A stretch of 59,020 nucleotides of DNA from a virus (Duplodnaviria; Caudoviricetes): IMG/VR virus record IMGVR_UViG_3300034094_000170, positions 1 to 59,020 of that record; one strand, 5' to 3'. Shown in pieces: positions 1 through 56,875 of the stretch (its first letter is position 1; every line of letters starts with the position of its first letter). The notes below the pieces were generated by a model. That model searched no databases. It had not been told where the DNA came from and was given only the letters and a program-made list of their open reading frames with translations. The translations under genes were made by a program, and so were the position numbers.

Positions 1-637
1 CTGTTATTTGTCCTTTCCCGTTGACAGTAACGACAGGAATTGAACTAGCACCGCCAAACGCACCAACATTACTATTAACTGTTGCCAGAGTTATCGCGCT
101 TGAAACATTAGCTGAACCATCAAAACTAACAGAGTAAGTTGCGTCTCCAGTTGTTGAAATTGTCCGGGCGTTTGTTAGTTTTAACGCCTCCCCCGCCGTT
201 GCCGAGCTTGATATTTCAACATAAACAGTACCAGACCATCGATAGGTTTTGTTAGTATCTTCGGTGACATAAATTTTGCCAGTCTCACCCGCAACCGGAA
301 ACGCTGCAAGGTTAGCAAAATTCAAAACATCATCAACATAAGATGGTAAAACCGATGCTGAAATTGTGCCAGACGCGGCGTTAAGAGCCGTTAAGATTGT
401 GTTATTAGAAGTTAATGATTTTGTGAAATTTGAAACAGTGGGGTCTGTTTCGGTTGTTAAAAAAGTATTTGGATTAATACCCCTAATTAAATCAGCATCA
501 AGACCTGAACCTGAACCGTCAACAGTTTTCAGTTCAGTTAATAAAACATTAGCAGAGGTTAAACCTTTAGTGTATGAACTAACTTCGGGGTCAACCTCTG
601 TAACAACTCCAACTGATTTTTTAACTCTAAATCCCAT
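1..637 (-). CDS. Tail fibre protein, 5' part (runs off left edge; not in ORF track)
   Basis: ATG at 637 opens MGFRVKKSVGVV...; carries common tail-fibre motifs DGSGSGLDAD, LPSYVDDV, YRWSGTVYVEIS and ARTI...FDGSANV. Confidence 0.8.
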   Translation of the reverse strand, partial: MGFRVKKSVGVVTEVDPEVSSYTKGLTSANVLLTELKTVDGSGSGLDADLIRGINPNTFLTTETDPTVSNFTKSLTSNNTILTALNAASGTISASVLPSYVDDVLNFANLAAFPVAGETGKIYVTEDTNKTYRWSGTVYVEISSSATAGEALKLTNARTISTTGDATYSVSFDGSANVSSAITLATVNSNVGAFGGASSIPVVTVNGKGQIT

Positions 638-13704: not shown

Positions 13705-15003
13705 ATGCAATCACTCAAATCAAATTTAATTTTTAATCCACAAGGAAATGATGATGTAAACCATCGGTCAATATGGAAAGGTGAAACCACAAATTTAATG
13801 CAATTAAATGATGTGCGTTATTCCTGGGCTGTTAGTTTGTGGAAACAAATGAGAGAGAATTTTTGGACAAGTGAAAAATTTGATGTCACTCAAGACATTA
13901 ACGATTATCAAAATTTAACACAGCATGAACAGAAAGGTTATGATGGGATACTATCATATTTGATATTTTTAGATTCAATTCAAACGGTCAATATACCACA
14001 TCTAAAAAGTGTTATAACAGCACCAGAAATAAGTCTATGTATGTCAGAACAAACATCTCAAGAAGCTTTACATTCACAATCATATCAATATCTTTTGGAA
14101 AGTATTGTCCCAACTGAAAAACGCAATATAATTTATGATTTTTGGAGGACTGACACATTGCTTTTTGAACGTTGTGAGTTTATATCTTCAATGTATCAAA
14201 AATTTGTTGACACATCAACTGAAGAATCTTATTTTGAGGCGTTGATGGCTAATTTTATTTTAGAAGGATTATATTTTTACTCTGGCTTCTGTTTCTTTTA
14301 TTCTCTTTCTTCTCGAATGTTAATGTCTGGTTCTGCTGATATTTTTCGTATGATTAACCGTTAATTTGTGGCGGCTTTTTACAGCAATGTAAATCGAAAA
14401 CCCCTCTAATTTAGGGGACATCTCAACTGAGACAATCCTAAGCCAATTTAATAATTTATATTATTAAAAGGTTCAACGACTAGCTGAGAAGCGTAGGGTC
14501 AAGTGACTCGAAACGGGGGGCAACCTTATGGGTTGGTGATATAGTCTATTCTAATAGGTGACTATTAGCAGTTTTAAAAAACGGGCAAAGATTAACGAAC
14601 TTTGTTGAATGTATAGGATGAATTATCTCACGTCCGGTTATACCAAAAAATCATACCTAAAGCTATGCAAACTTTTCCACATTCAATAGAGCGAATATAT
14701 GAAATGTTTGATAAAGCTGTAAAATATGAAATCCTTTGGGTTAACCATATTGTCGGCAATGAAATACTAGGAATCACTGAACAAAGCACAGAACAATACA
14801 TCAAATATTTAGCTAACATTCGATTAAAGTCAATTGGTTTACAACCGTTATATAATAAACCAATTTACTTTAAAAACTGTTATGCTCATCTTGAAAAAAT
14901 GGCAGATACAGGAAAAGATGCTAATGTAAAAGCTAACTTTTTTGATAGTGGTGTTACCAGTTATGTGATGTCATCTGGGGTGAGTGGTTGGGAAGAATTT
15001 TAA
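13705..15003 (+). CDS. nrdB: Ribonucleotide reductase class I beta subunit, two exons (13705-14361 + 14617-15003; 347 aa spliced)
   Basis: FLDSIQ, QEALHSQSY (radical Tyr), LEGLYFYSGF; splicing restores the conserved INR|DELSH in frame; C-terminal NFFD..VTSY. Confidence 0.93.
14362..14616 (+). ncRNA. Group I self-splicing intron, 255 nt, no homing endonuclease ORF
   Basis: 5' exon ends in U (AACCGT) and can pair with GCGGCT (P1, U.G); core elements AATCCTAAGCC, GTTCAACGACTA and GATATAGTCT; ends in G before GATGAA. Confidence 0.9.
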
Positions 15004-15010
15004 TTATTTG

Positions 15011-15167
15011 TGTTATAATGATAATATGGTTTTGTTATTAAAACCATTGAATCGAAACTATTGTGTCATTAATATCAATCCTTTTTATGGATTGTGAATT
15101 GAAATTTAGAGTTTAGTGAGCCTCCCACCAAAAAACCCCCTAACTTTTTAGTTTTTGGGGTTTTTTT
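15011..15167 (+). CRISPR. Short-spacer CRISPR-like mini-array 1, with promoter and terminator
   Basis: TGTTATAAT (15011-19); stem ATGGTTTT/AAAACCAT + TGAATCGAAAC; 17 nt; stem CAATCC/GGATTG + TGAATTGAAAT; terminator 15130-15167. Confidence 0.65.
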
Positions 15168-33300: not shown

Positions 33301-35834
33301 GCTCTACGTTGTTTTACAGAAGGTTTTTTTATACTTTCTTTTTTAGTATTTAATTCTTTTATTTTAGGTTCTAATCTTTCAGCTATTAATGGTATATGAC
33401 TGTAAGCTTTACTTATTCCGTCTATATAATCGACAAATACTTCAATATCATTTTGTATATCAAGAACACTACCTTTTCCCGATTTTTCATATAGATTTAT
33501 TTTTTGATATAATTCTTTATATGTAGAATTTATACCAACTATAACCTCTCTAAGTTCACTACCTGTTTTTATATCAAGTTTTTCAGACTTAAGTTTTTCT
33601 ATTACAGGTGCTAATTTTTCACCTATTAATGGTATATCAGCATAAGCCCTAGAAATAGTTTTAATATATTCAACAAAATCATCAACATCTTTTTGTAAAT
33701 CGGTGATACTACCTTCACCAACTTTTTTATATAAAACTATTTTTTTATTTAGATTATTATAGGAAACGTTTATACTTTCAAGTAGTTTTTTTAAGTCGTC
33801 ATTGGTCTTAACTTTAGGCGGTGCTTTTTTGACTCTGTTTGCAATATCAAAAGTTTTTCTAATATCCTCCATTACTGGTGCATCTTCAAAATAATTTCCT
33901 ATTGAATGTGCTTTTTTAACGTCTGTTTCAGCACCTTCACTCTCTACAATATTTTTAGCACCTTTTCTCAATGGCCCCATAACTTTACCTATGGGGTCTT
34001 TTTTAGACATATAGGATTTAAAACCTAAATTCTTTTTATGTTTTTGCAAATATCCAGTTTGCGGAGTTCCTATTGCTACAGTAGGAACTTTAACACCAAC
34101 TTTATCTAATACTTCCTGTCCCTGTTGAGCGACAAAACCGCCACCAGAATATCCAACAGTGCTAATAGGAACATTATATTTTTCTGCGTATGCTTTAGCC
34201 TGGGCAACATATTCCGCAGTTGTGGGGATAGAACCGTCAACTAATGTAGTTTTTAATATTTTTTTAAATAATACTTCATATATAGCTTTTGGTACGTTTT
34301 CAGCTATTGGTTGTGATATGTCATATAAATGATTACTAATAGGTACAACATAACTTTCTTGAAAACGTTGTTCAATTTCTCTAGCTAACTTTTCCCCACC
34401 TTTACCTTGATTTCCACTAAAACCACCAATAGCAAAAATGACGTTATCTTTACCTAATTCATCAGGTAATCCTTTTTTTATTTCTTCAGCACGTTTTTCA
34501 ATTTCTTCAGTTAATTGTTGTAAAATTCTTTCTGTTCGTTTGTTTATATTTTTTGCAGGGACATCATATAAACCAACTAAAGACTTTTTTATTCTTGCAA
34601 CAGCCCTAGCATTAGATTTTTTATTTTGTCTTATAGGTAATCTGAGAGTCTTAACGGCTCTACCTAATTCCTGAGCATCAGGTTTAAATGTTTCAGGATT
34701 AAAAACCTCTTTGACGGCGGGGATTACTTGCTCTTTAACATATTTTACTTTAGCTGCACGTCTTTTTCTACCATTTCTGATTTTAGCCCCCGCATTATGT
34801 ACAGCAGTACCACTTTCTTCATCTTCTTCACCCTCAACAGGTTCACTCCCATATACTCTATTTCTAACTTTGGTTACAAATTTGCTTGTTTTTTGTGCAA
34901 TTTTTTCAAACTGTACCGCAATATCATCAAGTTTTTTATTTAATTTTTCATCTAAATCAAACCTTTCTATTATTTTATCGGCAAGAGCATTACCAAATCT
35001 TTCACCAAAACCAGAAAATACAGCACCAGCAAAAGACATTGTTAAATCACCAACAAATTTACCAATACCTTTTAAAGCATTAGTAAAAATATTACCAGCA
35101 CTTTTTTTCTGCAATTGATATAATTCGTTTGTATTTCTAACAACTAATTCTAAACTTTTTTCTATTCGTAAATTTACATTTAATATGTTATTTAATATTG
35201 ATTTATTACTATCTTTAGTTTTAGAACTACCGGAAGATAATCCAACCCGTGTTTCAACAGTAGGAGGAGGTGCAGATTGTCTATAATTAGAACTTACATT
35301 TTGAGTTACTGTTTTGGTTTTTATCGTGAAAGTTTCTTTTTCTAATTGTGTTCTTATTTTTTTTATCGCATTTCTTGATAAAACAGGCGTAACCGTTATT
35401 TCATTGGGAACACTTCTGTAATCAACTTTTTTTATTCTTAAAACAACATCTTTATTTATTGGTTTATTACCAGCTTTTTCTAATGCTTTTAATTTTCTTT
35501 CAGCATCAGAAGTATCAATATTTAACTTTGTATTTATTCTTATTTCTTTTTTTAAATCTTTTTCTATTTTTCTTTTTTCTTTATCTTCAATTTTTTCAGC
35601 TTTTATTTTTAATTTAGCTTCAATTTTTAAATCTTTTGATAATTTTCTTTTTATAGAAGATAATTCTCTCTCATAACTTTTTTCAGAAAAAGATACAGGT
35701 ACAGTGACACCTTTTTTATAATCCGATAAATCAATATCAGGTTTTAAATTTATATTTTTAAGTTTTTTTAACTGGTCATCTAAATCGTTAGTGTTAAGCC
35801 TTACATTTATTTCTACTGTTCCTAATGATGTCAT
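15327..35834 (-). CDS. Giant tape-measure-like protein (6835 aa) with 4 alpha/beta-hydrolase and 6 HExxH peptidase modules
   Basis: N-terminus [15 protein letters not shown]; tape-measure motif [30 protein letters not shown] near 20490; coiled-coil C-terminus; follows the tail chaperone genes. Confidence 0.85.
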   Translation of the reverse strand: [6835 protein letters not shown]

Positions 35835-45713: not shown

Positions 45714-45872
45714 ATTTCAATTCGCATCTCAATATTTTTTTAATATTGAGATGTTATCCTCATTTTTTACAATATTTCAATTTTCAATCCCTATTACTGA
45801 GTATTGTTACCCAAATATCAAAATATCGTTGCCTTATTTCAATTTTCAATCCCTATTAATTAATAGGGATTG
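45714..45872 (-). CRISPR. Short-spacer CRISPR-like mini-array 2, directly downstream of cas7
   Basis: Three stem + 11-nt handle units (AAAATTGAAAT twice, CGAATTGAAAT) separated by 29 and 20 nt. Confidence 0.7.
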
Positions 45873-45887
45873 TTTTAACTATTTCAA

Positions 45888-46748
45888 CTATTTGTCAACA
45901 CTCCAAAAACTTACACTATCTGGAGTATTATCGTAATCAATGGAAATATCATAATCGCTGATACTTCGAGGGATGTCAACATTTTTTTCAACTGACAACA
46001 TCTCAAACAATTTATGACTAGGATAATTACCCCATTTACTGTCATGGGTAAAAATATACAATCCTTGACAGTTCATTGAAGAACGGGCAGAGCTTTTATC
46101 AAATTCCCAACAATTAACAAGCGCATCCCAAAAAAGTTTTAAATCATCTTCAGAAACGTCGCCTTTATTCAAACCAGGATTGTAATGGATTTCAACCTTA
46201 AATAAACCATAAGGGATTAACTCTTTACGACCCATAGTTTTATTGTCCTTGCCCTCAGTTCCCTCAGTAGCGGCACATCGGGTAATTGTTGCTGAAATAG
46301 GCAATACAGGGTCAAACGAACGTCCCCAACTAACTTGTACTGGCCCCCAAACTTGTCCTGCTTTCCATCCAGTAGACAAAACGGCCCCAAACATCCGAAT
46401 ATCAAAATATCTTTGTCGTAGTAATGTCTGAACTTTTTCTTGTTCTTCTGGTGAACCTTCTTTTTTGTTACCTTTTTTGACACTAGGCTCAATCCCTAAA
46501 TCGGTGTAACCTTGGTCAATTTTGTTATTGAGGATACTACCTTCTTTAACAAAAATTTCATGGTTTCCAAGCATTTGAACATAGTTACGAATCTTGCGTT
46601 TAATACAAGCATCGGTCATTAAACCGTGTCGGGTTTCAGAATCGGTTCTTGGCTGATTTCCTGCGTCTGGGTCGCCATTAGGATTACCGTCAGTGCAATC
46701 AACTAATAAGATTGCATCATGTTTTTTGTTAGGGTCAAAGTGGTTCAT
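45888..46748 (-). CDS. cas7: Type I-C Cas7 (Csd2)
   Basis: GNPNGDPDAGNQPRTD, TDACIKRKIRNYV, FDIRMFGAV, GPVQ, TITRCA, TMGRK. Confidence 0.93.
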   Translation of the reverse strand: MNHFDPNKKHDAILLVDCTDGNPNGDPDAGNQPRTDSETRHGLMTDACIKRKIRNYVQMLGNHEIFVKEGSILNNKIDQGYTDLGIEPSVKKGNKKEGSPEEQEKVQTLLRQRYFDIRMFGAVLSTGWKAGQVWGPVQVSWGRSFDPVLPISATITRCAATEGTEGKDNKTMGRKELIPYGLFKVEIHYNPGLNKGDVSEDDLKLFWDALVNCWEFDKSSARSSMNCQGLYIFTHDSKWGNYPSHKLFEMLSVEKNVDIPRSISDYDISIDYDNTPDSVSFWSVDK

Positions 46749-46751
46749 GGT

Positions 46752-47126
46752 TTATTCTTCCTCTTGTTTGTTTTCAGTGTTTTGTTTAGTGTAAAATTCA
46801 GCCCGTCGCTTTGCAAATCCTATGAAAAACAAAGATTTTTGACGGAGTGAAAAATTTTCAGGTAAGTTTTCAGGATTAAATTCTAAAAACTCGGAATCTA
46901 AACAGTTTTGGACGTAAATCGTATTTGTTGCCGATTGTAGATGGTGACAATAACAACCTTGATACAATCGGTCAAATACTTGAAAAGGTGTTGTTGAAAG
47001 TGTTTTAAGAGAACGCAACACATTAGTATCTTCATTGTTTCCTTGATTACGTCCTTTTATTTGTGCAACGTGCATCAAGAAAGCAATCCGACCTAATCGG
47101 TATGCAATATCATCATTTGTTTCCAT
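46752..47126 (-). CDS. cas11: Cas11c small subunit from an internal in-frame start in cas8c (124 aa)
   Basis: In-frame ATG (METNDDIAYRLGR) after A-rich AAAGAAATCAAA; internal translation of Cas11 is established for type I-C. Confidence 0.65.
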   Translation of the reverse strand: METNDDIAYRLGRIAFLMHVAQIKGRNQGNNEDTNVLRSLKTLSTTPFQVFDRLYQGCYCHHLQSATNTIYVQNCLDSEFLEFNPENLPENFSLRQKSLFFIGFAKRRAEFYTKQNTENKQEEE

Positions 47127-48449
47127 TTTGATTTCTTTGATTGTTTGGTTGAGATAGAGCAAAAGACCTTTTACTCTGACAGCAAGAGAATAACTAAAAA
47201 ACTTTAGATTTTCCTCGCTATGGCATTCGGCACAGATTCTATCAATTAGTTTTTGAGCATATTCATCTGGTAATGTTTTACCCAAAAGAGTGTAATAAAT
47301 CAAAGCTGTTTCCACTCTTTGAGTGTAATCACCCGCATCAAAAAAAGCAGCTTTAATCAATGCGTAAATGGGCAAAACTTTACCATCAAGTGATTGTTGG
47401 ATTTCAAGAAAACGTTTGACATTTTCAGCTATTTCATCGGGAGTAGTTTTGTTAATCCCATTGATAGCAATCCTTCCAGCATTACCCTTTAAAATACCAA
47501 GGTAAAACTCAGATGAATATGCTCTGGTGTTTGCTGAAGTTTTACCTCCATAAACACTTTTGAAAAGACCTGAGAATTTTATTGATTCAGGGTCATTCCA
47601 AAACTCATCATTTATTCCCTCCTGATTGACATTTCCCCAATAAACAAACATCTGCTTATTAAGGGTTTGGTGATGATATGGGGAGTTTATTAAGTAGTCA
47701 AGTCCACTTATCACCCCCCATGCTGTATCAATCCCTATAGGCGCATTGTCATTACCTTTAAATCCCCATCCCTGATAGGCAGGTTTATCAAAAGATGTGA
47801 TTGATGCTCCAGTGCTATTGCCACCAGGGATATTTTTTATTTTTTCAGGGAAAACACTCAAAATAATTGGTTGTTTTTCCCCAGTGATGATACAACGTTT
47901 ATCATTCCAATCATCTAAATCTAAACGGTCAAGATATTCAAACCGCCAAAACTCTTGAATTTTTGGAGTGTCAGAAATTAGTTTTGGTTGCTCATCATCT
48001 CCTGTTGTACAGAATGCAAACCTCAACCCTTCACCCATTTTTTTATTAGGAACAGGTTTGCATCCGATTTCTTTGAGATGATTTACAACATCTTTTGTGT
48101 TAACGCTTTCAAGATAAGATATAATTTTGGAAGTGTTAACGTCTAACGTCTTCTTGCAACATCTATGCAGCAACTCCAAATATGCTGCATATTTTTTTTT
48201 ATCCAAACCTAAAACGTATTCACCAACATCAACAATCAAGATAGGAACTGTCCCATTTCTACTCAGTGATGGCACAATCATCCGTTTACCCTGAGTGCTA
48301 AAAACTTTATCCTTTTTGATTCTCTCTGTTTTTAATAATGTGATGGAATTGTTATCAACATTAATCAAAACATCAACTTTTTGAGTGGAATAACCTACGG
48401 GTAATTGCGGGTTTAATGTTTTAGAAAAATCATACAATTCTTTTAGCAT
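46752..48449 (-). CDS. cas8c: Type I-C Cas8c (Csd1)
   Basis: CIITG, GASITSFDKPAY..WG, NAGRIAI, AYRLGR, FFIGF; lies between cas5 and cas7. Confidence 0.88.
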   Translation of the reverse strand: MLKELYDFSKTLNPQLPVGYSTQKVDVLINVDNNSITLLKTERIKKDKVFSTQGKRMIVPSLSRNGTVPILIVDVGEYVLGLDKKKYAAYLELLHRCCKKTLDVNTSKIISYLESVNTKDVVNHLKEIGCKPVPNKKMGEGLRFAFCTTGDDEQPKLISDTPKIQEFWRFEYLDRLDLDDWNDKRCIITGEKQPIILSVFPEKIKNIPGGNSTGASITSFDKPAYQGWGFKGNDNAPIGIDTAWGVISGLDYLINSPYHHQTLNKQMFVYWGNVNQEGINDEFWNDPESIKFSGLFKSVYGGKTSANTRAYSSEFYLGILKGNAGRIAINGINKTTPDEIAENVKRFLEIQQSLDGKVLPIYALIKAAFFDAGDYTQRVETALIYYTLLGKTLPDEYAQKLIDRICAECHSEENLKFFSYSLAVRVKGLLLYLNQTIKEIKMETNDDIAYRLGRIAFLMHVAQIKGRNQGNNEDTNVLRSLKTLSTTPFQVFDRLYQGCYCHHLQSATNTIYVQNCLDSEFLEFNPENLPENFSLRQKSLFFIGFAKRRAEFYTKQNTENKQEEE

Positions 48450-49090
48450 CGCACTACCCCATTTTTCATGATTGCTTCAAAATATTCAGGTTCAACATTA
48501 CCCTTTGTAATCTTTTTTTGTTGATGGTCAAACCATTGAAGCTTGCCTGTTTTACTAGGGTTAAAATTTATCTTTTTGAGAACTTGTCCAAAGTTAAACT
48601 CACCCAAAAGTTCGGGATGTACCTGTTCAGTACCATCAGGAAATTTAAAAGCACAAGCATACTCTTTAACACCCATACATGGTTGTTTGAAACAAGCACC
48701 TTGACTGATTCGCTTGTTTACGATGGCAAAATATTTATCAATTGGGTCTGTTGCCCTTTTAGTCAATTCCATGCCAAAATCAATGATGTAAGCAGGGTTT
48801 TTAAGAACAACAAAATTGCGCTGTGAACGGTCGTCACTGATGATGTAATGTTCTTTGTCGTAACTACTGGTAACGATTTTACTCTTACCCATATTACGAA
48901 AAAAAGAAGCGTATCTGATTGGATTCAGAACTGTTATACTGTTGACCGTATACTCGATTTCCGGTTTCCAGAAAATCGCCTTTAGGATTCCCTCTGCTGC
49001 ACTAGGAGTGAGAAAAGGATATGAAAATGGGTCAGCTTTTGTTTCGGGTTTTGTGAATAAACCATACTCGCCCCACACTTTTAATTGCAT
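48443..49090 (-). CDS. cas5: Type I-C Cas5 (Cas5d, crRNA-processing)
   Basis: KVWGEYGLFTKPE...SYPFLTPSAAEGILKAIFWKP, VLNPIRY, GACFKQPCMGVKEY. Confidence 0.93.
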   Translation of the reverse strand: MQLKVWGEYGLFTKPETKADPFSYPFLTPSAAEGILKAIFWKPEIEYTVNSITVLNPIRYASFFRNMGKSKIVTSSYDKEHYIISDDRSQRNFVVLKNPAYIIDFGMELTKRATDPIDKYFAIVNKRISQGACFKQPCMGVKEYACAFKFPDGTEQVHPELLGEFNFGQVLKKINFNPSKTGKLQWFDHQQKKITKGNVEPEYFEAIMKNGVVRC

Positions 49091-49304
49091 AGGTTTATAT
49101 TTTTAATTCAGTATTTCAATTCGGTTGTTTGCTCTTACTGAATTAAATATACCAATAAAAAGCTAGTTGTAAACATATTTTAGTTTTGATTTTTATATCA
49201 AATAACAAAAAACTTATAAGTTATAATCATATATTTTAATGTTGAAAAATCACATATTTAAGTTAGGATTATCAATTATCTATGTCAAAATTTAGGAAAC
49301 AAAA

Positions 49305-51389
49305 ATGGAATTACACGCCAGGAGATTTATAGTTAATGGTAAATTTATTACACAAGATTTGATAGAGCATCTTAAAGGTGTTGCCAACAAATCAAGTGAT
49401 AAATTTAAAAATATTTCAGTTGATTTAAAAACATTAGCTTTTTATGCAGGGCTATTACATGACGTTGGAAAAGCTAAAAAATCATGGCAAAAATATATGT
49501 TTAAAAAATCGTGGGAAAAACATCTAACAAAAAAATCAGATAAAAAAAAATCAAAAGTTGAAATGGTTTTCCACTCATCAGAGGGTGCTAGAGCTATCAT
49601 GGAACTGTCAGGTGATGACTACCACCCGCTTGCATGGATTATTCAAGCGCATCACACAGAGTTAAAAAACCAAAGTGATTTAGGAAGTGATTATTTTATT
49701 GAAAATTCTAAACATTGGAAAACTTGCCTTGACCGTGTTTTTCCTGGGTTTGATATCAATAAAATTCCAAAATTAAAATTAAATATTTTAAAAAAAGAGT
49801 TGGCAATCAGGATGTTGTATTCAGTTTTAGTTGATTCTGATAGGCTTGATGCTCAAGAATTTGAAGAAAGATATTATAAAAACGTTGTTACACATAAACC
49901 ATCTATCTTGACTGTCTGTAATATATGGTCAAATATACCAGTACCACCACCGGAAAACACTTTGGTATCGGTTGAGCGTAAATATTTTAGAGATATTGTC
50001 AGTGGTTATATCAAAGATAAAAAAACCTGTTACCGATTAATTGGTGCTACTGGAGTAGGAAAAACACTTACATCACTCAACTTTGCATTAGAGCATTGCA
50101 AATATCATAATATGGATGGATTGATTTATGTTGCTCCGTACAAGTCAATCATTGACCAAACTGCTAAGATATATCGTGAATTGTTGAGTGATGATGCTGT
50201 TTTGGAACATCACTCCGATTTTGTACCTAAACCTAAAGATGAAAATGATTATAAGTTATCTTGCCAAAGGTGGGATTATCCGGTGATAGTTACTACTGCG
50301 GTACAATTTTTTGAGTCAATATTTTCTAACAAATCTACCCGATGTCGCAAGCTTCAAGGATTACTCAATAAGGTGATTTTGATTGATGAATACCAAACTA
50401 TTCCACCTAATTTAATTGAATCAATTGCCGATATTTTAAAAAATTTAGTTGAAGATTTTGGATGCACTGTAGTTTTAATGTCAGCTACAGCACCAAATTT
50501 ATCGGGTTTTAATTTACCCCATGTTGACATGATTCCACAATCAGAAGTAAATCGTCAATTTGAAGTTTTGCAGCGTTGTGAGTATGAATTTAAGGAGTTT
50601 GATTATCAAGAAATAGCTAATTTTCCTGGTAAAAAACTTGTAATCGTAAACACCACGAAAACAGCATTAAATTATTTTCAATATTTTGATAGTGTCCAAC
50701 CGGGACAATGGCTACACTTATCATCTCGGATGTGTGTTTCACATCGTAAAGAAGTGATTAAAAAATTAAAAACTGGTAAATATAATTGTGTCAGCACTCA
50801 GATTGTGGAAGCAGGGATTGATATTGATTACCCCACAGTTTTTACAGAAGAATGTCCTTTTGATTCATTGATTCAACGTGGTGGACGTTGTAATCGTGAA
50901 GGTAAATTACCGTCAATGGGTAAAGTTTTTATCATCCCTTGCAGCAATTATCCTGGTCAAGAATACAGACAGTTGGCAATTACAACATCTAATTATATTT
51001 TAAACCATAAAGGCTTTAAACCTGATGAATTGGTTGGCTTATTGAGTAAATATTTTAGTGTGAGAAATTCTAATATTTCATCTGAAATTCAAGATTTAAG
51101 AAAGAATTTAATGTTTAAAGATGTCAACGATAAATTCAAAGTGATTGAGGATGGTATGCCTAATGTTTTATGTGAATGGGGTGATGGAATACAATTAATT
51201 AATCAGTTAAAAAATAAACCAAAATTGACACCTAATGAATGGAAACAATTACAACAATTTACTGCAACAATTTTACCCAAGGATGATAATTTTAAAAATG
51301 TTGTAGAATATGATAATGGTATGAGAGTTTGGAATGATGGATATGATGATAATTTTGGAGTATATATTCAAACTTCATATATTATTTAA
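49305..51389 (+). CDS. cas3: Cas3 HD nuclease-helicase
   Basis: EHL, LLHDVGK, HS, HH, LVDSD (HD domain); ATGVGKT, IDEYQ, MSAT, STQIVEAGIDID, QRGGRCNREG (helicase). Confidence 0.93.
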   Translation: MELHARRFIVNGKFITQDLIEHLKGVANKSSDKFKNISVDLKTLAFYAGLLHDVGKAKKSWQKYMFKKSWEKHLTKKSDKKKSKVEMVFHSSEGARAIMELSGDDYHPLAWIIQAHHTELKNQSDLGSDYFIENSKHWKTCLDRVFPGFDINKIPKLKLNILKKELAIRMLYSVLVDSDRLDAQEFEERYYKNVVTHKPSILTVCNIWSNIPVPPPENTLVSVERKYFRDIVSGYIKDKKTCYRLIGATGVGKTLTSLNFALEHCKYHNMDGLIYVAPYKSIIDQTAKIYRELLSDDAVLEHHSDFVPKPKDENDYKLSCQRWDYPVIVTTAVQFFESIFSNKSTRCRKLQGLLNKVILIDEYQTIPPNLIESIADILKNLVEDFGCTVVLMSATAPNLSGFNLPHVDMIPQSEVNRQFEVLQRCEYEFKEFDYQEIANFPGKKLVIVNTTKTALNYFQYFDSVQPGQWLHLSSRMCVSHRKEVIKKLKTGKYNCVSTQIVEAGIDIDYPTVFTEECPFDSLIQRGGRCNREGKLPSMGKVFIIPCSNYPGQEYRQLAITTSNYILNHKGFKPDELVGLLSKYFSVRNSNISSEIQDLRKNLMFKDVNDKFKVIEDGMPNVLCEWGDGIQLINQLKNKPKLTPNEWKQLQQFTATILPKDDNFKNVVEYDNGMRVWNDGYDDNFGVYIQTSYII

Positions 51390-51642
51390 TTCCGACAACC
51401 TAGAGGTGTACAGCTAACAATGTCTAAAAAATAGTCTACACCTCTCACCACACAACCCTTTGAGCGATTCTAACTTAAAAATAGGTTGGCGGAAACGCTA
51501 GAATACTTATGGGTAAACATTTTTTGATGATTATTACTAATATCCACTTGACAAATAATGAATACATTTGCTATTATTAATTCAGGTTGTCGGAATCAAA
51601 CCTTGAAAACTAAATATATCAAGGGTTTGAAAAGCAATGCAA
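51390..51642 (+). promoter_or_regulatory. CRISPR leader with promoter
   Basis: TTGACA(51548)-18 nt-TATTAT; inverted TTCCGACAACCT/AGGTTGTCGGAA; CCTTGAAAACTAAATATATCAAGGGTTT next to repeat 1. Confidence 0.75.
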
Positions 51643-52119
51643 GTATCAACTCCTAGCAATGGGAGTTGCGAATTGAAACATATCGGTGTTCGAGTTGTTC
51701 CCCCTTGCTCACCTGTATCAACTCCTAGCAATGGGAGTTGCGAATTGAAACATCACCTATGAGCAAAAAATCGATAATGCTATTCAAGTATCAACTCCTA
51801 GCAATGGGAGTTGCGAATTGAAACGCGTGGCTTGGCTTGCCTTGCTTGGCTGTGAGAGAAAAGTATCAACTCCTAGCAATGGGAGTTGCGAATTGAAACA
51901 AGCCTTCCTGAACACTGCCAACAGCCCCAATGTAAGTATCAACTCCTAGCAATGGGAGTTGCAAATTGAAACGATTTGTTCTATGTTGGTAATACTATCA
52001 GCATTTAGCAGTATCAACTCCTAGCAATGGGAGTTGCGAATTGAAATAATTATCCGACGCGATACCAATGATGAAATATTTGGTATCAACTCCTAGCAAT
52101 GGGAGTTGCGAATTGAAAT
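51643..52119 (+). CRISPR. CRISPR array: 7 x 37-nt repeat GTATCAACTCCTAGCAATGGGAGTTGCGAATTGAAAC, 6 spacers of 35-38 nt
   Basis: Repeats start at 51643, 51715, 51788, 51863, 51936, 52011 and 52083; stem CAACTCC/GGAGTTG followed by an 11-nt handle. Confidence 0.97.
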
Positions 52120-52232
52120 CATGAATTGGTCATTAACAATCTCGTTTTTATCGAGATTGAGAATTGAAACCAATCATGGCTTGCAGACCATTTCTAAACA
52201 ACAATTAGAAATGAGAATTAAAATACGATAAT
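52120..52232 (+). CRISPR. Short-spacer extension of the array with two sequence-divergent repeats (mini-array 3)
   Basis: 17 nt, then CAATCTCG/CGAGATTG + AGAATTGAAAC; 18 nt, then CATTTCTAA/TTAGAAATG + AGAATTAAAAT. Confidence 0.75.
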
Positions 52233-53567
52233 TTGACACTCCCCGCTCTAAAGAGACGGGGATTCTTGGTTCACAGAGATTACTTGCTTAGACAGAATTG
52301 CTTCTGAAAAAGTAGAGGTATTCTCTCCCCAAGCGTTTATTGGGTCGAGCCCAAAGGTTCCGGTATGCCCTACCGTACTTAGTCCCCTTTTAAGGATGTT
52401 GATTGCGGCGTTTTCATCCCTATCCAAAACACATCCACACTTGCACTGATGGGTTCTAGTCGATAAAGATTTTTTGACAGTTTCACCACAGTTTGAACAG
52501 TTTTGGCTTGTATAGTTCGGTGCGACAGCAATCGTTATCTTGCCAAATTTAACCCCAAAATACTCTATCCATTCCCGAAACTGATACCAGGCCGCATCAT
52601 TTATCGATTTAGCTAGACAATGATTCTTGACTAAGTTCTTAACTCTTAAATCCTCGTAGGCTATCACATCGCTAGAGTGAACTACGCACCTTGCTAATTT
52701 CACAGCAAAGTCTTGACGTTGCCTACTTACTTTAAGATGAGCTTTAGCTAATCTTTGTCTAGCTTTTTGACGATTTTTACTTCCCTTTTTCTTTTTAGAT
52801 AATCGCCTTTGAAGTCGTTTTAATCGTTTCTCAGACTTTCTCAAGAATTGAGGATTATCAACCTTGTTGCCATTGTTATCTGTATAGAAAGAAGCCAAAC
52901 CTACATCTAAGCCAATACACTTACCTGATGGTTTAACATCTTCTTTAACGTCACAAGAAAGGACAAATTGACAATAATAACCGTCCGCTCTCCGAATCAA
53001 CCTAACCCGTTTAATATCGGATTCTTGAAAGTACCCTAAATCCCAAGTTCCTACCAACTTAAGAACACCAATGTTTTTCTTGTCAGTGAACTTAACAGTT
53101 TTCGGGCTAAGAAGCTTCCATCCTGATTGTTTGTATTCAACAGAGCGAGATTTTTTAAATTGAGGATACCCCTTTTTGCCTGATACTTTACGTTTACAGT
53201 TGTCGTAAAAACGACTAATTGAACTCCAAGCACGTTCAGCACTTGCCTGTCTAGCAGTTGAATTAAGTTCATCGGCAAATTTAAAGTCCTGAGCTAATTC
53301 TTTAGAATATCGGTATAAATCGTTCTTACCCGTACCTTTTGTATCCATCCATAACCTTACACATTTGTTACGGATGAATTGAGCAGTACGAATAGCATCG
53401 TCTATGGCTTGATACTGTTGAGTTTTAGCTTTAACTTTAAACTCTAAGACAAACATTTTACGCAGGGGGGACTTAGACAAAATCAGTATAGCACAATAAA
53501 AGTTAAGTTAACAAGCTATAGTTTAAAAAGCCGTCCTAAAAGGACGGGGCTTTAACCCAAAATTTCG
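52233..53567 (-). mobile_element. IS200/IS605-family element with tnpB only (IS1341-like)
   Basis: Right-end hairpin GAATCCCCGTCTCTTTAGAGCGGGGAGTGTCAA; left-end hairpin near 53530-53550, preceded by TTTAC; left boundary approximate. Confidence 0.8.
52248..53456 (-). CDS. tnpB: TnpB RNA-guided endonuclease
   Basis: RuvC motifs GLDVG, YEDL and DRDENAA; zinc finger CSNC...CKC; likely ATG at 53456. Confidence 0.92.
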   Translation of the reverse strand: MFVLEFKVKAKTQQYQAIDDAIRTAQFIRNKCVRLWMDTKGTGKNDLYRYSKELAQDFKFADELNSTARQASAERAWSSISRFYDNCKRKVSGKKGYPQFKKSRSVEYKQSGWKLLSPKTVKFTDKKNIGVLKLVGTWDLGYFQESDIKRVRLIRRADGYYCQFVLSCDVKEDVKPSGKCIGLDVGLASFYTDNNGNKVDNPQFLRKSEKRLKRLQRRLSKKKKGSKNRQKARQRLAKAHLKVSRQRQDFAVKLARCVVHSSDVIAYEDLRVKNLVKNHCLAKSINDAAWYQFREWIEYFGVKFGKITIAVAPNYTSQNCSNCGETVKKSLSTRTHQCKCGCVLDRDENAAINILKRGLSTVGHTGTFGLDPINAWGENTSTFSEAILSKQVISVNQESPSL

Positions 53568-53587: not shown

Positions 53588-53623
53588 AAAAACCCCTGAT
53601 ACGTCTCTATACCAGGGGTTTTT
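53588..53623. terminator. Bidirectional intrinsic terminator (probably the original end of the CRISPR transcript)
   Basis: AAAAACCCCTG...CAGGGGTTTTT. Confidence 0.65.
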
Positions 53624-54336: not shown

Positions 54337-54558
54337 ATGAGTTATGTAGCAGATAGAGATTGGCTAGAAAGTTTGAAAGTTGGTGATAAAGTTGTCGTAA
54401 AAGACAACAAAAACGCCATAAAACCAATCAACGCAATAATAACAAAGGTTACAAAAAAACTCATTTATGCAAACTATAACGAGTTTTCAAGACAGTCAGG
54501 AAAGATTAATACCAACAAGAGCGGAAGCAATTATTATTACCTGAGCAAAAGAGAGTGA
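54337..54558 (+). CDS. Small hypothetical protein (SH3-like LKVGDKVVV)
   Basis: AAGGA Shine-Dalgarno-like element; 73 aa. Confidence 0.55.
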   Translation: MSYVADRDWLESLKVGDKVVVKDNKNAIKPINAIITKVTKKLIYANYNEFSRQSGKINTNKSGSNYYYLSKRE

Positions 54559-54598
54559 ATTGACACTCCCCGCTCTGAAGAGACGGGGATTCTACATT

Positions 54599-55780
54599 CT
54601 ACGTCAGAATTTGCTCAACCAGGTTTTCACCAAGAAGAGTAGAGACTCCAACTCCTGTAGCGTTAATTCGGGAATGCCCTTCCCTATTTTTAGCTAAATT
54701 CAGAATGTTAATTGCAGCGTTTGTATCTCTGTGCAACTCACATCCACAAGTACAAACATGGGTGCGAGTTGATAGAGATTTTTTCACAATTACCCCACAA
54801 TTAGAACATTTCTGTGAAGTGTAATGGGGTGGAACTGGTATTGCCAATTTATCAAATTTAGCTGCAAAATATTCTATCCATTGTCGGAACAAATACCAAC
54901 TGGCATCACTAATTGATTTAGCTAAACAGTGGTTTTTAACTAAATTCTTAACACTTAAATCTTCGTAGGCTACTACATCGTTAGATGTGCATACGTTACG
55001 CGCTAGTTTTTTAGCGTGTTCATTCCGTTGCCTGCTTACTTTTAAGTGTTTTTTAGCGTAAACTTTTCTGGCTTTCCGTCTTCCTGATGAACCTTTAACC
55101 TTTTTATAGATTTGTCTCTGAGATTTTTTAATCGACGTTTCCGCCTTTCTTAGAAACTTGGGATTTGGTTCTTGATACCCGTTAGAGTCTGTATAGAAAG
55201 ATTCTATTCCAACATCCAGTCCGATTTCCTTTCCGGTTTTCGGTTGAACATCAGTGACGGTAATATTCAGGCAAAATTGACAGTAATATCCATCAGCGCG
55301 ACGAATTAAACGAATCCGTTTAATATCTTTGACGTTGTAAGTATGGATATCCCATTTTCCTAAAAGTTTAAGTTCACCAATACCTTTTTTGTCAGTTATG
55401 GTAATTCTTCTTTTAGTGGGATGCAATGACCAACCCGATGTTTTATATTCAACAGAACGACAATCTTTCTGAAATCTAGGAAATCCTTTCTTTCCAGAAA
55501 CCTTTTTCTTACAATTTTCGTAAAAACGAGAAATTGCCGACCATGCTCGTTCCGCAGCAGCTTGTACTGCCATTGAATTTAAGTCTTTGACAAAATCGAA
55601 TTGTGAACGAAGTTCTGTAGAATACTTGTTTAAAGCAAATCGATTAATTTTGGTATCTTTAGGTGCGTCCATCCAATACCGAATAGACTTGTTTCTAATA
55701 AACTGTACCGTTTTAATCGCCTCATCAATCGCTTTGTACTGATGAGGTTTTGCTTTGATTTTGTATTCTATAACTATCAT
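54599..55780 (-). CDS. tnpB: TnpB RNA-guided endonuclease
   Basis: GLDVG, YEDL, HRDTNAA; CSNC...CTC. Confidence 0.92.
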   Translation of the reverse strand: MIVIEYKIKAKPHQYKAIDEAIKTVQFIRNKSIRYWMDAPKDTKINRFALNKYSTELRSQFDFVKDLNSMAVQAAAERAWSAISRFYENCKKKVSGKKGFPRFQKDCRSVEYKTSGWSLHPTKRRITITDKKGIGELKLLGKWDIHTYNVKDIKRIRLIRRADGYYCQFCLNITVTDVQPKTGKEIGLDVGIESFYTDSNGYQEPNPKFLRKAETSIKKSQRQIYKKVKGSSGRRKARKVYAKKHLKVSRQRNEHAKKLARNVCTSNDVVAYEDLSVKNLVKNHCLAKSISDASWYLFRQWIEYFAAKFDKLAIPVPPHYTSQKCSNCGVIVKKSLSTRTHVCTCGCELHRDTNAAINILNLAKNREGHSRINATGVGVSTLLGENLVEQILT

Positions 55781-55872
55781 TGATTCGACCTGTCAATGGG
55801 TTGTCTGTTTGCTACTATCAACCTTAACACAGTAAACTAGATTTGTCGATAAAAATATCAGAACAACCAAAT

Positions 55873-56283
55873 ATGAAACTGAAGTCTATAGATTACAAGC
55901 ATTACAACCACTCAGTCGGATTAGCTTGTGTCCACCTGGTTTGGATTCCAAAACGAAGAAAGCGTGTGCTAGTTGGAAACGTAGCAACACGCTGTCGGGA
56001 GATATTTTATGAATTAGCAATTGAGAAAGAATGGGAGATTAAAGCACTGGAGATAGCTCCTGACCATATTCATTTATTTATCTGCCATCAACCTAATTAT
56101 TCGATTAGTCAGATTGTGCAAGCTTTCAAAGGGAGATCGTCGTGTTACCTCAGAAGAGAATTTCCTGATTTACTGAAACTTCCTAGTTTATGGACTCGCT
56201 CCTATTTTCACACAACTGCTGGTAGTGTTAGCTCGAAAGTTATCATGGAATATATTAATGACCCCCATCACAGTACCCATTAA
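55873..56283 (+). CDS. tnpA: IS200-type Y1 transposase
   Basis: HLVWIPKRR, PDHIHLF (HUH), LWTRSYF, EYI (catalytic Tyr). Confidence 0.92.
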   Translation: MKLKSIDYKHYNHSVGLACVHLVWIPKRRKRVLVGNVATRCREIFYELAIEKEWEIKALEIAPDHIHLFICHQPNYSISQIVQAFKGRSSCYLRREFPDLLKLPSLWTRSYFHTTAGSVSSKVIMEYINDPHHSTH

Positions 56284-56366
56284 AAGACAGGCGCTTAAAA
56301 GCGCTGCTTGCCTTCATCCACGAACTGAAGTTACGTGGTTTTCGGCTCTGCCAATAATAAACTGAT

Positions 56367-56403
56367 AAAACCCCGTGATTAATATAATCACGGGGTTTTT
56401 TTT
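56367..56403 (+). terminator. Intrinsic terminator
   Basis: AAAACCCCGTGATT...AATCACGGGGTTTTTTTT. Confidence 0.7.
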
Positions 56404-56735: not shown

Positions 56736-56875
56736 AAAATTAAAATAGATGAGCGACTAACTAACAATACATAATTAATTATGTATTGAGAATTGAAATA
56801 GATGAGCGACTAACTAACAATACATAATTAATTATGTATTGAGAATTGAAATAATTATGTATTGAGAATTGAAAC
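56736..56875 (+). CRISPR. Short-spacer CRISPR-like mini-array 4 (53-nt tandem unit)
   Basis: [AGATGAGCGACTAACTAA + palindrome CAATACATAATTAATTATGTATTG + AGAATTGAAAT] twice, then a half repeat ending AGAATTGAAAC. Confidence 0.7.

Follow-up and report, generated by a model that had tools for sequence, protein, structure and literature searches.

Repeat-like units with rewritten stems and half-length guides behind the type I-C array of a cyanobacterial virus are candidate crRNA-like genes

Shortened guides have been described in several type I CRISPR systems. Type I-B spacers of 24 bp or shorter (PMC10989794) or of less than 26 bp (PMC10551041) are reported to repress without interference, and shortened CRISPR RNAs (crRNAs) of type I-E to give Cascade complexes with fewer Cas7 subunits, interference requiring more than 20 nt (PMC5159557). 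Degenerate mini-arrays making crRNA-like regulators are described from cells (Liu et al., 10.1101/2023.03.10.532045; Shmakov et al., 10.1101/2023.03.03.530964), and viral crRNA-like RNAs are described with guides of mostly 17-21 nt, the studied I-F complex having fewer backbone subunits (Liu et al., 10.1101/2024.10.29.618823). Here, we analyzed the record IMGVR_UViG_3300034094_000170, a complete virus record of 59,020 bases that is referred to as the window over its full length; it derives from a virus of freshwater cyanobacteria with its own CRISPR system. Two repeat-like units with short guides, units 8 and 9, directly follow the canonical type I-C array of this phage. We estimate a probability of roughly one half that they are crRNA-like genes whose transcripts would be processed by Cas5c, loaded into a shortened Cascade and used for binding without cutting.

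The canonical repeats follow each other at 72-75 nt from start to start, with spacers of 35-38 nt (Table 1); repeat 5 contains one internal change, and the final base of repeats 6 and 7 is T instead of C. An earlier note, made by a model from the letters of the window alone, had described seven near-identical repeats followed by two units with different, perfectly paired stems of 8 and 9 bp and a retained 11-nt handle, and this architecture was found as described. Unit 8 has a perfect 8-bp stem (52137-52144 with 52152-52159) and unit 9 a perfect 9-bp stem (52189-52197 with 52205-52213), each with a loop of 7 nt, and both stems are unlike the canonical stem in sequence. Compared with the canonical handle, 1 of 11 positions differs in unit 8 and 3 of 11 differ in unit 9, one of the latter being the final C-to-T exchange also present in repeats 6 and 7. 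The guides preceding the two stems, given as 13-14 nt by the earlier note, are 17 and 18 nt long when counted from handle to stem; the shorter values result from counting the 4 nt before each stem with the repeat, as in the canonical repeat. Thus defined, units 8 and 9 have the flush perfect stem and the conserved 11-nt handle of I-C repeats, whereas the near-identity of repeats and the spacer length of approximately 33-38 nt typical of such arrays are not found, the stems being unrelated and the guides 17-18 nt long. The two units are repeat-like and not canonical array members. In the predicted fold the short guides 8 and 9, which are near reverse complements, pair with each other (52120-52132 with 52170-52178, 9 bp with one bulge).

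Units 8 and 9 are not chance structures, because both were recovered by a model built without them, their design recurs in three further mini-arrays, and their stems covary. Both strands of the window contain 39 handle-like sites, 15 of which directly adjoin a perfect stem of 6 bp or more (the 7 canonical repeats and 8 others); the background is 892 stem ends in 117,940 positions (0.76%) for stems of at least 6 bp and 208 (0.18%) for stems of at least 8 bp. A covariance model was constructed from 14 other units, with units 8 and 9 left out, and run as an unfiltered scan over both strands. It identified unit 8 with 41.9 bits (E = 5e-7) and unit 9 with 25.5 bits (E = 0.003), and also the broken middle unit of mini-array D (30.3 bits), which lay outside the training set; the best match outside the unit clusters reached 16.2 bits (E = 0.33). 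Altogether 16 units had E values below 0.01: the seven canonical repeats, units 8 and 9, two units at 15022-15105, two at 56761-56852, and three at 45714-45876 on the minus strand. Both hairpins are present in the minimum-free-energy fold of 52083-52232 (z-score -4.8), and none of 200 shuffled sequences folded as well. Stem pairing had been noted earlier as preserved, in contrast to ordinary decay, and compensatory changes agree with this: when 17 units of the window and of related loci are aligned, 95.6% of the cells pair and all 8 stem pairs change on both sides, a percentage that is partly circular because the aligned units were picked for having stems. None of 500 shuffles reached the observed values, and slid controls paired at 32-47%; the tests independent of this selection are the background of the handle-like sites and the leave-out model.

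Seven more noncanonical units are spread over three mini-arrays of the same genome, termed A, C, and D, which share one plan. Two hairpins, each with a handle, flank a short segment, and a tail and a terminator-like hairpin come after them. The short segments comprise 17, 18, or 20 nt, and the distance from handle to stem is 17-20 nt in all five short guides of the genome. In mini-array C the same 18-nt guide precedes each of the two units (56747-56764 and 56800-56817), and in mini-array D the stem of the middle unit is broken.

Table 1. Positions of the units, guides, and associated features in the window.
Feature	Position	Strand	Details
Promoter-like site	51548-51577	+	-35, 18-nt spacer, extended -10; 11 of 12 consensus matches, TG before second hexamer
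Canonical type I-C array	51643-52119	+	Seven 37-nt repeats, six spacers; repeats 41.7-45.6 bits each (covariance model)
Repeats 1-7	51643-51679, 51715-51751, 51788-51824, 51863-51899, 51936-51972, 52011-52047, 52083-52119	+	
Short guide 8	52120-52136	+	17 nt, handle of repeat 7 to stem of unit 8
Unit 8	52137-52170	+	8-bp hairpin 52137-52159, 11-nt handle 52160-52170; model hit 52133-52170
Short guide 9	52171-52188	+	18 nt, handle of unit 8 to stem of unit 9
Unit 9	52189-52224	+	9-bp hairpin 52189-52213, 11-nt handle 52214-52224; model hit 52185-52224
Mini-array A	15022-15105	+	Two units, 17-nt guide; 37.5 and 39.3 bits; 3' untranslated region of second ribonucleotide reductase exon
Mini-array C	56736-56875	+	Two identical units, then half unit; 44.7 bits twice
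Mini-array D	45714-45876	-	Three units, 20-nt guide; directly 3' of cas7; 40.8, 30.3, and 36.7 bits
cas7	45888-46748	-	Pfam Cas_Cas7; full Pfam coverage
cas8c	46752-48449	-	Pfam Cas_Csd1; full Pfam coverage
cas5	48443-49090	-	Pfam Cas_Cas5d
cas3	49305-51389	+	HD nuclease and helicase parts; Pfam, alignment to solved I-C Cas3
IS200/IS605-type element	52233-53567	-	tnpB only (52248-53480); OrfB_IS605 and Cas12f1-like TNB domains
Hairpin between A run and T run	53588-53623	.	Strand unassigned; 15-pair stem, scored on minus strand
Second, related IS200/IS605 element	54557-56400		tnpB 54599-55780 (-); Y1 transposase gene 55843-56283

The proteins that would be required for using such guides are encoded next to the array, and cas5, cas7, cas8c, and cas3 all appear intact. 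Cas5 aligns to solved I-C pre-crRNA processing endonucleases (E = 1e-29 to 1e-34), so that a predicted cognate Cas5c gene lies near the array, as expected for I-C repeats. Cas3 aligns to a solved I-C Cas3 with E = 3e-70, including the histidine and aspartate positions of the HD region. No cas1, cas2, or cas4 was seen among the open reading frames (ORFs) of at least 80 codons, of which the Pfam scan covered a part. The earlier note had also proposed a physical link between the short units and the I-C system, and the transcriptional layout bears this out: since a strong promoter-like site precedes repeat 1 in the leader and no terminator-like site was found on the plus strand before 53588, units 8 and 9 are predicted to lie under the same promoter as the canonical array, in one transcription unit. 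The 250-nt leader behind cas3 can be aligned by eye with the leaders of the related loci L004, L017, and L003.

The hairpin at 53588-53623 is likely the original terminator of the array transcript and is now split from unit 9 by an insertion sequence (IS) that starts 8 nt 3' of the unit 9 handle. A contig of the public run X2 joins 52232 directly to 53568, and this junction establishes both the bounds of the element and the existence of an IS-free form of the phage, in which approximately 35 nt follow the last handle before the hairpin. On the strand of the element, TTAC precedes it and its end reads TCAA; the guide part of the TnpB RNA would be the flank including the unit 9 handle. The end hairpins of this element and of the second one (Table 1) are almost alike. 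A tenth guide, spanning the IS and matching 12 nt with a TTC flank at 35327, was considered and is void, as the IS-free contig contains a different native sequence behind unit 9.

From these features the following course is proposed. A transcript starting at the leader promoter would comprise the seven repeats and read on through units 8 and 9. Cas5c would require only the hairpin and the conserved handle, and would cut at the 3' base of each hairpin, the rewritten ones included, freeing two RNAs of approximately 51 and 54 nt, in which the 17-18-nt guide would be preceded by an 11-nt handle at the 5' end and followed by a hairpin at the 3' end. Both guides fall 18 nt short of the shortest canonical ones, which corresponds to three 6-nt Cas7 steps; because of this difference, a Cascade with about four Cas7 subunits instead of seven may be expected. 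Such a short complex could bind a flanked target and be too short to license Cas3, resulting in silencing and not in cutting. One array would then serve two modes, in which long guides destroy rival DNA and short guides shut down genes, either of the host or of other elements. We infer the processing, the shortened complex, the binding without cutting, and the targets of guides 8 and 9. The wider proposal, a two-mode CRISPR programme from one transcript in which long guides with Cas3 destroy rival DNA and half-length guides silence host genes, is offered only tentatively. Equally tentative are its particulars, that the silenced set includes a family of small membrane proteins, that the host is without such a system, and that the virus uses its own Cascade.

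Candidate hosts were indicated by the IS. Matches with E values of 1e-250 or better were obtained in 11 of 401 genomes of the order searched, with full-length copies of 99% identity in G399 and G314, 99% identity over 1,203 nt in G155, and 96% in G376. All four genomes fall into one genus, of which 17 genomes were examined and which is termed the IS-sharing genus in the following; a protein identical to one encoded by G399 has Microcystis names in public sources. The Cas7 family was not detected in any of the four IS-sharing genomes, whereas it was detected in the Planktothrix positive control. Thus, the phage's own Cascade is the likely user of the short guides.

The clearest candidate target was obtained for the 18-nt sister guide in mini-array C. 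It matches 17 of 18 nt, starting from guide position 1 and with a TTT flank, in sequences L056 and L057, and 15 nt in L055. The gene containing the site has 92 codons, encodes a membrane-anchored coiled-coil protein, and in L057 adjoins a helix-turn-helix regulator gene; public sources assign the multicopy family to DUF4164, with a weak XhlA-like Pfam match below the cut-off. Allowing up to one mismatch, 20 sites were found in 12 of the 17 genomes of the IS-sharing genus, with up to three per genome, whereas the reversed control gave none; no site was present in 12 genomes of the genus Planktothrix. The similarity ends exactly at the guide borders. By our estimate, a 17-nt match in approximately 5 Mb is expected by chance at about 5e-4 per genome and guide, which amounts to approximately 1 in 100 after seven guide-by-genus searches, the flank being excluded from this calculation. 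In our view this match speaks well, if not conclusively, for the short units being guides against host DNA.

The long spacers were searched as well. Among them, only spacer 4 (51900-51935) matched a plasmid: 32 of 33 nt agree with a GTC-flanked site inside a hypothetical gene of plasmid p2 of Planktothrix agardhii (NZ_LR882954.1, 21292-21324), on which partition genes and several defence-like genes are also located. In run X1, one contig passes from the spacer 4 sequence into plasmid-like sequence, which indicates that the target of spacer 4 was present in a lake sample that also contained the phage. The long spacers had no match in the phage collection, the window, the cas8c loci, or the genomes of the IS-sharing genus (first 5, then 17), nor had the first 22 nt of spacers 1, 4, and 6 any match in viral contigs.

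The array tail was recovered with 0-2 differences in contigs of three studies (X1 and X2 over 52083-52232, X7 over 52099-52249). The earlier note had predicted that long spacers would vary among related phages and short ones would be conserved. The short tail is almost unchanged, but the contigs of X1, X2, and X7 belong to the same phage, and conservation among them is no measure of selection; the depth gaps over the long spacers in run X2 are uninformative on spacer turnover, and the only more distant relative having the array region, L004 (Cas8c 70% identical), is without short units. At the array position of L004, a leader of the same type precedes a single repeat, which has yet another stem; approximately 65 nt and a terminator come next (100-165, minus strand). 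Relatives of Cas8c were found in cyanobacteria and freshwater metagenomes only, among them P0002 with 72% identity, and no relatives were found in viral contigs searched by repeat, Cas7, Cas8c profile, and leader pattern. The I-C loci of Planktothrix, with Cas8c 46-49% identical, have nearly the same handle and no nearby adaptation genes. These loci (L017, 12554-12897; L003, 9798-10103) have a solitary unit of hairpin and handle immediately 3' of cas7; a conserved 22-nt segment and a terminator come after this unit, and its stem is almost that of the phage unit behind cas7 (D1). Planktothrix arrays open with a unit of different stem; the first unit of L017 has a rewritten stem with no spacer after it. 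On this evidence, a fixed handle combined with rewritten stems is a trait of this cyanobacterial I-C clade, carried furthest by the phage. Among the repeats of the 27 cas8c-bearing loci, none matched the stems of units 8 and 9. A 28-nt stretch resembling unit 8, present in four genomes, was dismissed as coding sequence without a hairpin.

Several observations weigh against reading units 8 and 9 as guides for silencing. No credible target for guides 8 and 9 was found in the phage, the 27 cas8c loci, the two genera, or the 401 genomes. Inside the phage, the best match for these guides is 11 contiguous nt at 2598-2588 with no usable flank. Guide 8 gave 28 sites in the 17 genomes of the IS-sharing genus compared with 25 for the reversed control; the recurrent site, with two mismatches and an AGC flank, is at the 5' end of an antitoxin-like gene. 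Exact copies of the TTC-flanked 13-mer from guide 8 were present in 3 of the 401 genomes, for which the chance estimate is about 1; with one mismatch allowed, 103 of the 401 were positive, the reversed control also being positive in many. Guide 9 gave four sites in the IS-sharing genus, the best with 13 contiguous nt and a TTT flank, antisense in a phosphatase-like ORF. In the 12 genomes of the genus Planktothrix, the inspected matches of both guides were all in coding sequence, with GAC, GAT, or AAT flanks. To the same side of the balance belong the flank of the mini-array C site, TTT and not the usual TTC, and its position in the middle of a gene and not in a promoter; the lack of short units in L004; the origin of the length thresholds for cutting, which come from types I-B and I-E and not from I-C; and the conflict between the host signals, as spacer 4 points to Planktothrix, and the IS and the sister guide to the other genus. 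A guide 8 site in G363 was rejected, since it lies inside a sensor-protein gene. The remaining mini-array guides gave no further support: 25 sites for the guide of mini-array A compared with 62 for its control, and one site for that of mini-array D, all with unsuitable flanks.

Other explanations were considered. The short guides might still trigger Cas3, forming a complete R-loop over 17-18 nt so that host or rival DNA would be cut at short, possibly multicopy sites. Cas3 looks intact, the up to three mini-array C target sites per genome would suit the shredding of host DNA, and type I-E crRNAs with 14-nt spacers are described as still causing primed adaptation (PMC5159557). We nevertheless consider this unlikely, as interference is reported to be lost below approximately 20-26 nt in types I-B and I-E (PMC10989794, PMC10551041, PMC5159557) and the guides of the phage have 17-20 nt. 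The lack of targets for guides 8 and 9 and their mutual pairing over 9 bp with one bulge would fit Cas5c recognition modules that are no guides and act at the RNA level, where they might define the 3' end of the last crRNA, insulate the array from downstream sequence, stabilize the transcript, or buffer free Cas5c and Cas7; the location of the three other clusters in 3' untranslated regions just before terminators points in the same direction. A single hairpin would, however, suffice for defining a 3' end, and neither the spacing of 17-20 nt held from handle to stem in five of five short guides nor the position-exact 17-nt match of the mini-array C guide in a candidate host genus is accounted for, which makes a purely RNA-level role improbable. 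It is more improbable still that the units are functionless relics, left over from array recombination or old repeats and kept because the sampled phages are near-identical. For this speak the absence of short units in L004, the near-identity of all unit-bearing contigs to the window, and the tolerance of an IS directly behind the units. Stems are broken by decay, of which the middle unit of mini-array D (30.3 bits) is an example, whereas the stems of units 8 and 9 are perfect against a background of 0.18% and their handles are kept; both units are also intact after the insertion of the IS, which lies 8 nt past the last handle.

Two further readings relate the units to a cellular Cascade or to the cas genes of the phage. 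As anti-CRISPR RNAs they would act on a cellular type I-C system, either reprogramming a host Cascade with the same handle in the manner of Cracrs or serving as decoys in the manner of RNA anti-CRISPRs. In favour of this, the Planktothrix I-C loci have nearly the same handle and a solitary D1-like unit after cas7, spacer 4 matches a Planktothrix plasmid, and viral Cracr arrays are described to include nine two-spacer I-C arrays (10.1101/2024.10.29.618823). We give this reading little credence, because the phage has its own complete interference module, the IS-sharing genus is without the Cas7 family in four of four genomes, and the 27 cas8c loci contain no match of at least 9 flank-proximal nt that has a TTC flank or lies at a cas promoter. 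Autoregulation of the CreR type, in which the short guides would park the phage Cascade on the phage cas promoters and limit Cas production, is the commonest role described for degenerate mini-arrays at cas loci (10.1101/2023.03.10.532045; 10.1101/2023.03.03.530964). It could draw on a hairpin of 12 bp in the cas5 leader whose loop contains a handle-like 11-mer, but appears highly improbable, since no short guide matches the intergenic region between cas5 and cas3 (49091-49304), where not even 9 of 10 scored positions agreed, or any other TTC-flanked site in the phage. The best TTC-flanked self-matches of guides 8 and 9 had 4 mismatches in 12 scored positions, and a search for self-targets of all short guides in the phage gave none that was convincing. 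The hairpin itself (49102-49147, minus strand) lies just 5' of the cas5 start codon and may be a Cas5c binding site giving feedback on the cas5 mRNA.

Phage genes elsewhere in the window include those for a major head protein, a scaffold protein, and a portal-like DUF4055 protein, as well as an endolysin-like and a primase-like gene. The small-subunit gene of ribonucleotide reductase is split (13705-14364 and 14665-15003) by a group I intron (14352-14568, 96 bits), which was the only Rfam match in the window. A single ORF of 6,835 codons (15327-35834, minus strand) occupies one third of the genome.

If silencing by units 8 and 9 is true, guide length would be a natural switch between cutting and silencing, a principle at which engineers arrived on their own in types I-B and I-E. 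Cells are known to have regulatory crRNA-like RNAs, and those of viruses are known as borrowing host Cas proteins; the phage would offer a testable natural case of a shortened Cascade in type I-C. The units show how far stems can be rewritten while the handle is kept, and this would define what Cas5c reads. The phage array also suggests a design for repeat-diverse arrays that recombine less. Should the match to the host gene family hold, it would point to functions that bloom-forming cyanobacteria use against phages, or lose to them.

Among phages that carry CRISPR systems, Vibrio phage ICP1 reportedly has a type I-F system that attacks host elements, and huge phages are said to carry CRISPR-Cas systems of their own, in both cases with spacers of normal length. 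The phage analyzed here is similar in carrying an interference module together with an array, of which one long spacer matches a bacterial plasmid. RNA anti-CRISPRs, reportedly described by Camara-Wilpert et al. in 2023, are said to be solitary viral repeat units that closely mimic host repeats and act as decoys without guides. Units 8 and 9 and the mini-arrays resemble them as repeat-like units of phage genomes outside normal arrays, but each has a different stem and the handle-to-stem spacing is constant. CreR and CreA, as far as their published descriptions go, are likewise degenerate repeats that retain a processing signal, enclose a short guide, are located at or near cas genes, and are proposed to direct Cascade binding without cutting; a degenerate repeat pair around a shortened guide is also what units 8 and 9 present. 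In cells, they are described as stand-alone two-repeat units whose guides match the own cas or toxin promoter. The phage units, in contrast, are fused to the trailer end of a canonical array and match none of the phage cas promoters, and no flanked match to an own cas or toxin promoter was found in the phage.

Viral Cracrs are similar in being virus-borne, in their short guides (mostly 17-21 nt compared with 17-20 nt here), and in stacking different guides. They are described as units without cas genes whose guide is copied from a CreR or CreA of the host and which hijack its Cas proteins (10.1101/2024.10.29.618823), whereas the phage has its own Cascade and Cas3, its likely host genus is without the Cas7 family in the genomes tested, and its sole matched guide, that of mini-array C, points to a gene family other than cas. 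Cracrs lie outside CRISPR-Cas loci, whereas units 8 and 9 stand directly behind the phage's own array. Engineered type I guides share the mixture of long and short guides, by which one effector is described to cut some targets and repress others (PMC10989794, PMC10551041, PMC5159557); these are laboratory designs in types I-B and I-E, and the phage would be a candidate natural case in type I-C. A literature search gave no report of appended half-length guides with rewritten stems, and no paper on a cyanophage with its own type I-C system or such units, I-C cases possibly being included in supplementary lists of a preprint. We know of no report of a half-length-guide block with rewritten stems that is appended to an array. 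New compared with the described systems are the fusion of such units to a canonical array under one promoter, their occurrence in a virus with its own Cascade and Cas3, and the different stem of each unit, and probably also the non-cas host target of the mini-array C guide.

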